Origin: Escherichia coli
Lineage (GTDB): Bacteria; Pseudomonadota; Gammaproteobacteria; Enterobacterales; Enterobacteriaceae
Assembly (NCBI RefSeq): GCF_003334355.1
Contig: NZ_QOWP01000029.1
Strand: one strand, 5' to 3'
DNA length: 46,566 nucleotides
In this document: piece after piece, positions 46,344 through 46,566 of the stretch
How positions within the stretch are numbered: position 1 is the stretch's first letter
How the letters are laid out: each line of letters opens with the position of its first letter
Position numbers: made by a program

Positions 46344-46566
46344 TGATGACTTTTCGCCGTAAATAACTCCAGGTTTACGGCGAGCTGGTGATGCTGCCAA
46401 CTTACTGATTTAGTGTATGATGGTGTTTTTGAGGTGCTCCAGTGGCTTCTGTTTCTATCAGCTGTCCCTCCTGTTCAGCTACTGACGGGGTGGTGCGTAA
46501 CGGCAAAAGCACTGCCGGACATCAGCGCTATCTCTGCTCTCACTGCCGTAAAACATGGCAACTGCA

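Follow-up and report, generated by a model that had tools for sequence, protein, structure and literature searches.

An IS1 left end behind Escherichia coli tabA: a probably clone-specific junction at the edge of an AT-rich spacer

The DNA analysed here (hereafter the window) is a stretch of 46,566 nucleotides from Escherichia coli (contig NZ_QOWP01000029.1 of assembly GCF_003334355.1) that stops inside an IS1 element shortly behind the tabA gene. This arrangement raises the question of whether IS1 has taken the place of the U-tract of a tabA terminator, as the original prediction proposed, and of what kind of event joined the two sequences. The explanation that we consider highly probable is that the window ends in a genuine IS1 left end, specific to one clone, at the boundary between tabA and an AT-rich spacer. 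The features on which this explanation is built are listed in Table 1, together with other features of the window and the short sequences compared between strains.

Table 1. Features of the window and sequences compared at the tabA-yjgL locus (L numbers denote comparison loci from other genomes).
Feature	Position	Strand	Remarks
TnpB-like ORF, IS200/IS605 type	1-891	+	268 visible residues match the C-terminal two-thirds of TnpB (NF040570, E = 2e-79)
cpdB	7564-9444	-	pseudogene in the clone
ES239	9445-9567		Rfam, gathering score
STnc450	12919-12976		Rfam, gathering score
ES036	13056-13098		Rfam, gathering score
naRNA4 (REP-type), two copies	22082-22160 and 28323-28400		Rfam, gathering score
Mg2+ riboswitch upstream of mgtA	38449-38564		Rfam, gathering score
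yjgH (RidA family)	43870-44241	-	123-aa ORF, altered C-terminus
tabA (yjgK) CDS	45894-46346	+	150 aa from ATG; stop TGA 46344-46346; ORF list
Hairpin, arms CGCCGTAAA and TTTACGGCG	46355-46363 and 46374-46382	+	perfect 9 bp, 10-nt loop
CGGCGAGCT abutting IS1	46378-46386		predicted target-site duplication if simple insertion
AGCT between hairpin and IS1	46383-46386		direct reading
IS1 left terminal inverted repeat (IRL) GGTGATGCTGCCAACTTACTGAT	46387-46409	+	exact 23/23 match
First 180 bp of IS1	46387-46566	+	orientation same as tabA; remaining ~588 bp outside the window
Promoter-like site CTGCCA, 16 nt, TATGAT	46394-46421	+	reads into insA; consensus scan
insA, 5' part	46442-46566	+	GTG start, 41 codons, cut by window end
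IS1 terminus, far end			...GTTGGAGTCATTACC
Uninterrupted native sequence across the junction site			GGCGAGCTTATGAAAAG
Tail allele, CT02-type			AGCTTATG
Tail allele, K-12			AGTTTGTG
Duplications at simple insertions			L003 TTTTTTTG; L030 GGCAGTGAG; L031 CGCGAAGCT; L033 CAGGTACG; L042 CACATTACA; L045 GCTTAGACG; L046 GCATTTGTA; L050 ACTTTTCG
Non-contiguous flanks, no duplication			L002, L026-L029, L032, L034, L043, L044, L047-L049

The ORF that encloses tabA spans positions 45885-46346, with the ATG at 45894. Its product matches the YhcH/YjgK/YiaL family (TIGR00022, DUF386) with an E-value of 1.9e-62 and 209.5 bits against a cut-off of 45.5, and the gene shows 100% DNA identity to tabA as annotated in strain CT02. 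The IRL begins 40 nt past the tabA stop and 4 bp past the hairpin. It is a 23-mer found once in the window, where shuffled sequences are expected to contain none, and the same left-end sequence recurs with at most two substitutions in ten complete IS1 copies of 767-768 bp that we dissected at this locus. Over the full visible length, the element is identical (180/180) to a complete 768-bp copy from strain EM18-18-42 (L027). It agrees at 179 of 180 positions with IS1A-type copies (L002, L026, and L028-L032) and has two mismatches to the copy in L033; the lone mismatch to the IS1A type is a synonymous change in insA, ACC to ACT, at IS1 position 127.

The insA reading frame starts 56 nt into the element, and its translation begins with V. 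Its 41 visible codons match the N-terminal zinc-binding domain of the IS1/IS1595 families (NF050000, E = 3.4e-11), as well as the model transpos_IS1 (NF033558) at E = 2e-8, which is under the curated cut-off since only 41 aa are present. The promoter-like site in the left end is a consensus match only, of a kind expected 1.2 times in shuffles, and its position agrees with that of the known IRL-embedded insA promoter. The exact 23-mer, the 180/180 identity, and the zinc-domain match bear out the earlier reading of an IS1 left inverted repeat from 46387 followed by the start of insA. The perfect 9-bp stem-loop at 46355-46382 behind the tabA stop was likewise recovered by reading its arms directly, and all coordinates given previously were correct. 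Thus, the window ends in the genuine left end of an ordinary IS1. The element is of an already known kind, and its junction is an ordinary mobile-element polymorphism.

A visible length of 180 bp might also belong to a solo IS1 end or a truncated remnant, not to a complete element, and a complex arrangement of IS1 fragments does occur in one genome (L047). We regard this as very improbable, because the visible bases match a functional-looking 768-bp copy at 100%, because 19 of the 20 IS1 elements dissected at the locus are full-length (767-768 bp), and because the contig break of a sister assembly at the IS1 boundary fits a multi-copy repeat.

Empty counterparts of the site are present in other genomes. 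Positions 38000-46386 of the window, an 8.4-kb flank, are 100.0% identical to complete E. coli chromosomes including those of CT02, TC24, AREA_C483, and 1218KP, and in such genomes the hairpin is followed by AGCT and then directly by TATGAAAAGAGCG. In these chromosomes, tabA leads straight into the spacer and a yjgL-like gene; the CT02 sequence after the hairpin reads GGCG AGCT TATGAAAAGAGCGTTTTTTGATATTTTTTTGTGAGTAGAATTTG..., and the ATG of the yjgL-like gene lies 122 nt past the tabA stop. In the CT02-type allele, tabA and argF are ~1.8 kb apart. The native allele, GGCGAGCT joined to TATGAAAAG, is found in CT02 and in 16 other comparison loci. Because CT02 carries AGCT after the hairpin, the AGCT in front of IS1 is native sequence, which the IS1 end abuts exactly. 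In K-12 MG1655, tabA, a 122-nt spacer, and yjgL follow one another with no IS1 between them, in keeping with the earlier expectation that K-12 has no IS1 copy here. All loci retrieved through exact protein matches to TabA and BdcA were uninterrupted.

Two other readings of these comparisons were rejected. A Shigella origin was first suspected from best hits of 98-99%, but E. coli flanks match at 100%, and the lower figures are an effect of hit ranking. A shifted junction was considered because uninterrupted genomes match the window up to position 46391; this is chance similarity, with AGTTTGTGA standing there versus AGCTGGTGA in the window.

The junction of the window is absent from all 5,426 complete RefSeq E. 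coli genomes; tabA is joined to an IS1 left end within ~840 bp in 24 of them, in none at the position seen here. A 33-mer across the junction has no match in GTDB representative genomes or JGI metagenomes. The TamB allele of the window is rare (~11 contigs), and six of the seven contigs retrieved with it are 100% identical to the window over their overlap (GCA_014464935.1; Logan ERR4578542, the same contig from five samples; SRR3823860; and SRR25039421/3/4). The 283-kb contig of GCA_030714095.1, tried as a near relative, was dismissed, as it shares the TamB protein and is only 99.45% identical. The contig of 45,779 bp from GCA_014464935.1 maps to positions 606-46384 of the window and ends about at the IS1 junction, its end being placed by coordinate arithmetic over 24 kb of aligned sequence and not by direct reading. 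No complete genome of the clone was found in the collections, where the contigs with this TamB allele are drafts or read-level assemblies that stop at repeats. Judged by these comparisons, the junction appears as a lineage-specific property of one small E. coli clone. The original prediction of a strain-specific and not an ancestral arrangement thus holds against the reference genomes, the junction being missing from K-12 and from the 5,426 complete genomes alike.

The window has mobile-element sequence at either end, as a draft contig bounded by repeats should, and it most likely breaks off 180 bp into IS1 because the draft assembly was interrupted at a multi-copy repeat. A sequence that starts (TnpB-like ORF) and ends (IS1) inside repeats, with the tabA-IS1 join at its very end, could also carry an assembly chimera at that point. 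We consider such a chimera exceedingly unlikely, given that the join falls exactly on the first IRL base, as in real insertions, that another contig of this clone, assembled independently, ends near the same place, and that real IS1 junctions are common in the 122-nt spacer.

Several features elsewhere in the window were recorded alongside. The gene for 2',3'-cyclic-nucleotide 2'-phosphodiesterase, cpdB, has a nonsense codon at position 91 (window 9172-9174) and, when compared with the intact gene of 647 aa, lacks 63 bp in frame near 8334; among the collection members examined, the resulting 476-aa ORF occurs only in read-level assemblies (three contigs). The yjgH sequence is identical in CT02, where it is annotated as a frameshifted pseudogene, and this variant is widespread and not clone-specific. 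All Rfam matches are expected for this region of E. coli; one of them, the naRNA4 repeat near 22107, is where the clone's read-level contigs break.

The hairpin lies 8 nt past the tabA stop and is fully kept in the window. Its stem contains five G-C pairs and has a G+C-rich base, and the minimum free energy fold lengthens it to 12 pairs (46353-46384) with a z-score of -3.6 to -3.8, none of 200 shuffles being as stable. Among 39 comparison loci with an intact hairpin, the stems are invariant and the loop alone varies, and the tail behind the stem is polymorphic between strains. An outer helix that pairs the tabA stop region with the IRL would contribute ~3 kcal/mol extra and was treated as coincidental.

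In the native allele of the window's lineage, the 8 nt after the stem are AGCUUAUG (3 U), as compared to AGCUGGUG (2 U) in the window with IS1 and AGUUUGUG (4 U) in K-12; AGCUUCUG is a third tail allele among the comparison loci. The native T-runs begin 19 nt (T6) and 30 nt (T7) past the stem, and a consensus scan found no terminator-like site in the window or in the CT02 and K-12 loci. Since genomes with 100%-identical flanks continue AGCT and then TATGAAAAG after the hairpin, the native allele of this lineage has no U-tract at the insertion point, and none was displaced. The proposal that IS1 stands in place of the terminator U-tract is therefore not supported. A marked change in tabA 3'-end formation is likewise unsupported, as the hairpin is kept and the native tail is already U-poor.

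In its fullest form, that proposal would have a simple IS1 insertion with an 8-9 bp duplication replace the tabA terminator U-tract, weaken termination, and allow read-through into IS1. The hairpin is indeed stable and conserved, the K-12 tail AGUUUGUG is a borderline U-tract, and simple insertions with duplications are known in the spacer (L003, L045, L046, and L050). We nevertheless hold this sequence of events to be improbable. Compared with the native tail AGCUUAUG, the 8 nt behind the stem lose only one U to IS1; the scan called no terminator in the native loci; no tabA/yjgK 3' end is listed in the supplementary 3'-end tables of two Term-seq studies (PMC7815308, PMC12207403), which low expression could explain; and 7 of 11 spacer junctions elsewhere are deletion end-points.

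IS1 prefers AT-rich targets. The GC content falls from 50% in tabA to 37% in the tabA-yjgL spacer; the yjgL-like gene has 33%, and the first 60 bp on the right-hand side of the insertion point have 28%. In the explanation favoured here, IS1 transposition put the IRL at the boundary between tabA and the AT-rich spacer. The downstream gene, yjgL, is orthologous to Shigella icaR, which encodes a type III secretion substrate and whose promoter contains two overlapping MxiE boxes, of which one is functional and the other is not; in E. coli lacking MxiE and IpgC, yjgL/icaR is reported to be silent and probably a fossil of a type III secretion regulon, often truncated by insertion sequences (PMC9241512). 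The two best MxiE-box-like 17-mers of the spacer overlap each other (AGAGCGTTTTTTGATAT, with 5 mismatches, and TGATATTTTTTTGTGAG, with 6; L024 12395-12422), and the T6 and T7 runs coincide with them. Scored against the MxiE-box consensus, this overlapping pair fits the two boxes reported for the icaR promoter, and it is at these 17-mers that we place the putative yjgL/icaR promoter box. In native coordinates, the IS1 of the window lies 8 nt upstream of the first 17-mer and would sit between the tabA hairpin and the yjgL/icaR promoter region.

Whether the junction marks a simple insertion or the end-point of a deletion can be judged from IS1 junctions in other strains. Twenty other junction types were dissected around tabA, 8 of which are simple insertions with 8-9 bp duplications; the other 12 comprise deletions next to IS1 that reach into yjgL or past it, or arrangements of a complex kind (Table 1). 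The native spacer (L024 12348-12469) contains 11 independent IS1 junctions from other E. coli, or 12 counting that of the window, at 9, 10, 56, 71, 86, 93, 97, 100, 101, 103, and 118 nt past the tabA stop. Four of these 11 are simple insertions and seven are deletion end-points. Many more junctions fall in the first 800 bp of yjgL, and two of those dissected lie inside tabA.

One pair of loci documents how such deletions arise. The IS1 of strain 2018-18.25PC (L002; 2977-3744) has the same right junction in yjgL, CGCGAAGCTAACAAGG, as the IS1 of VG1046-3E9 (L031; 2624-3391). On its left side, the element of 2018-18.25PC has come to lie 9 nt past the tabA stop, and the hairpin, the spacer, and the 5' half of yjgL are gone. 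The two loci constitute a before-and-after pair for a two-step, IS1-mediated adjacent deletion.

An equivalent history can be drawn for the window, in which an IS1 in or beyond yjgL would have attacked the site 4 bp past the hairpin by intramolecular transposition. The spacer and the yjgL promoter would have been lost along with some or all of yjgL, and no target duplication would remain. We put the chance that the junction is the end-point of such an adjacent deletion or rearrangement at about even or slightly better, and we see a simple insertion flanked by a duplication of CGGCGAGCT as a serious possibility somewhat short of even; both estimates are drawn from the 4:7 split among 11 junctions, a ratio that may not hold for this clone. 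The case for a deletion is made by the 12 of 20 dissected junction types with non-contiguous flanks and no duplication, by the right flank that L002 shares with the simple insertion in L031, and by further examples (L026, L027, L028, L043, L048, and L049). It is weakened by the need for two events in a narrow clone, and no relative was identified that shares the alleles of the window and has a precursor IS1, oriented alike, in yjgL; the window itself offers no direct evidence of a deletion.

IS1 occurs within ~840 bp of tabA in 58 of the 5,426 genomes, 24 times in the orientation of the window and 34 times in the opposite one, at many distinct offsets. This is a three- to four-fold excess over the ~16 expected from ~11 chromosomal IS1 copies per genome placed uniformly and a ~1.35-kb zone, and it is suggestive only, the genomes having been counted without correction for phylogeny. 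There is close to an even chance that the spacer, together with the 5' part of yjgL, is a regional hot zone for IS1, in which insertion and then adjacent deletion repeatedly and independently erode a silent "fossil" gene in different E. coli lineages; the window would then add a further case. Since yjgL/icaR is reported as silent and probably a fossil, insertion-sequence hits there are likely tolerated.

The consequences that can be predicted for the clone differ between the two genes. The tabA coding sequence and the hairpin are untouched by IS1, and, with the hairpin kept and the native tail U-poor, tabA 3'-end formation would be little changed. Transcripts that pass the hairpin would run into IS1, with insA in the sense direction, and no longer into the yjgL promoter region. 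IS1 has a strong polar effect, and impinging transcription inhibits its ends. The gene actually affected would be the downstream yjgL, which would be either 768 bp further from tabA or partly deleted. If the event was a simple insertion, the yjgL promoter region would be intact (82 nt plus the duplication); if it was a deletion, the yjgL promoter and the 5' part of the gene would be lost.

As a clone-level insertion-sequence polymorphism in a non-coding spacer, the junction matters little by itself, and its practical use is as a clonal marker. Insertion-sequence fragments at contig ends should not be taken as simple insertions, as most junctions at this locus are deletion end-points. The recurrent insertion and deletion of IS1 near yjgL/icaR is of modest evolutionary interest and, if true, would represent mobile-element-driven decay of AT-rich, dispensable DNA.

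The findings at this locus can be set beside four known systems. The tabA hairpin shares with an intrinsic (Rho-independent) terminator a stable hairpin with a G+C-rich base, located 8 nt past the stop; unlike such a terminator, the native tabA allele has no U-tract directly 3' of the stem, the terminator scan is negative, and no mapped 3' end was found in the tables of the two Term-seq studies. The element has the IRL, the insA start, and the InsA zinc-finger N-terminus of IS1 of the IS1A/IS1R type (768 bp, insA/insAB') from E. coli and Shigella, and its visible part differs from that type by only one synonymous change; in a full-length element, the A6C -1 frameshift site, insB', and the right inverted repeat (IRR) would lie beyond the end of the window. 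The other E. coli cases of IS1 between tabA and yjgL involve the same element and the same 122-nt spacer, in both orientations and from 9 to 118 nt past the stop, as simple insertions (for example in ET625, CH10508, EC05, and 2021CK-01361) or deletions (2018-18.25PC, WWCOL-236, and WP7-S17-ESBL-04), but none of their junctions is at the 40-nt position of the window. Finally, the insertion-sequence truncations of yjgL/icaR in Shigella flexneri and in E. coli W, UMN026, and E2348/69 (PMC9241512) hit the same neighbourhood; those cases are C-terminal truncations, whereas the element in the window lies upstream of the gene.
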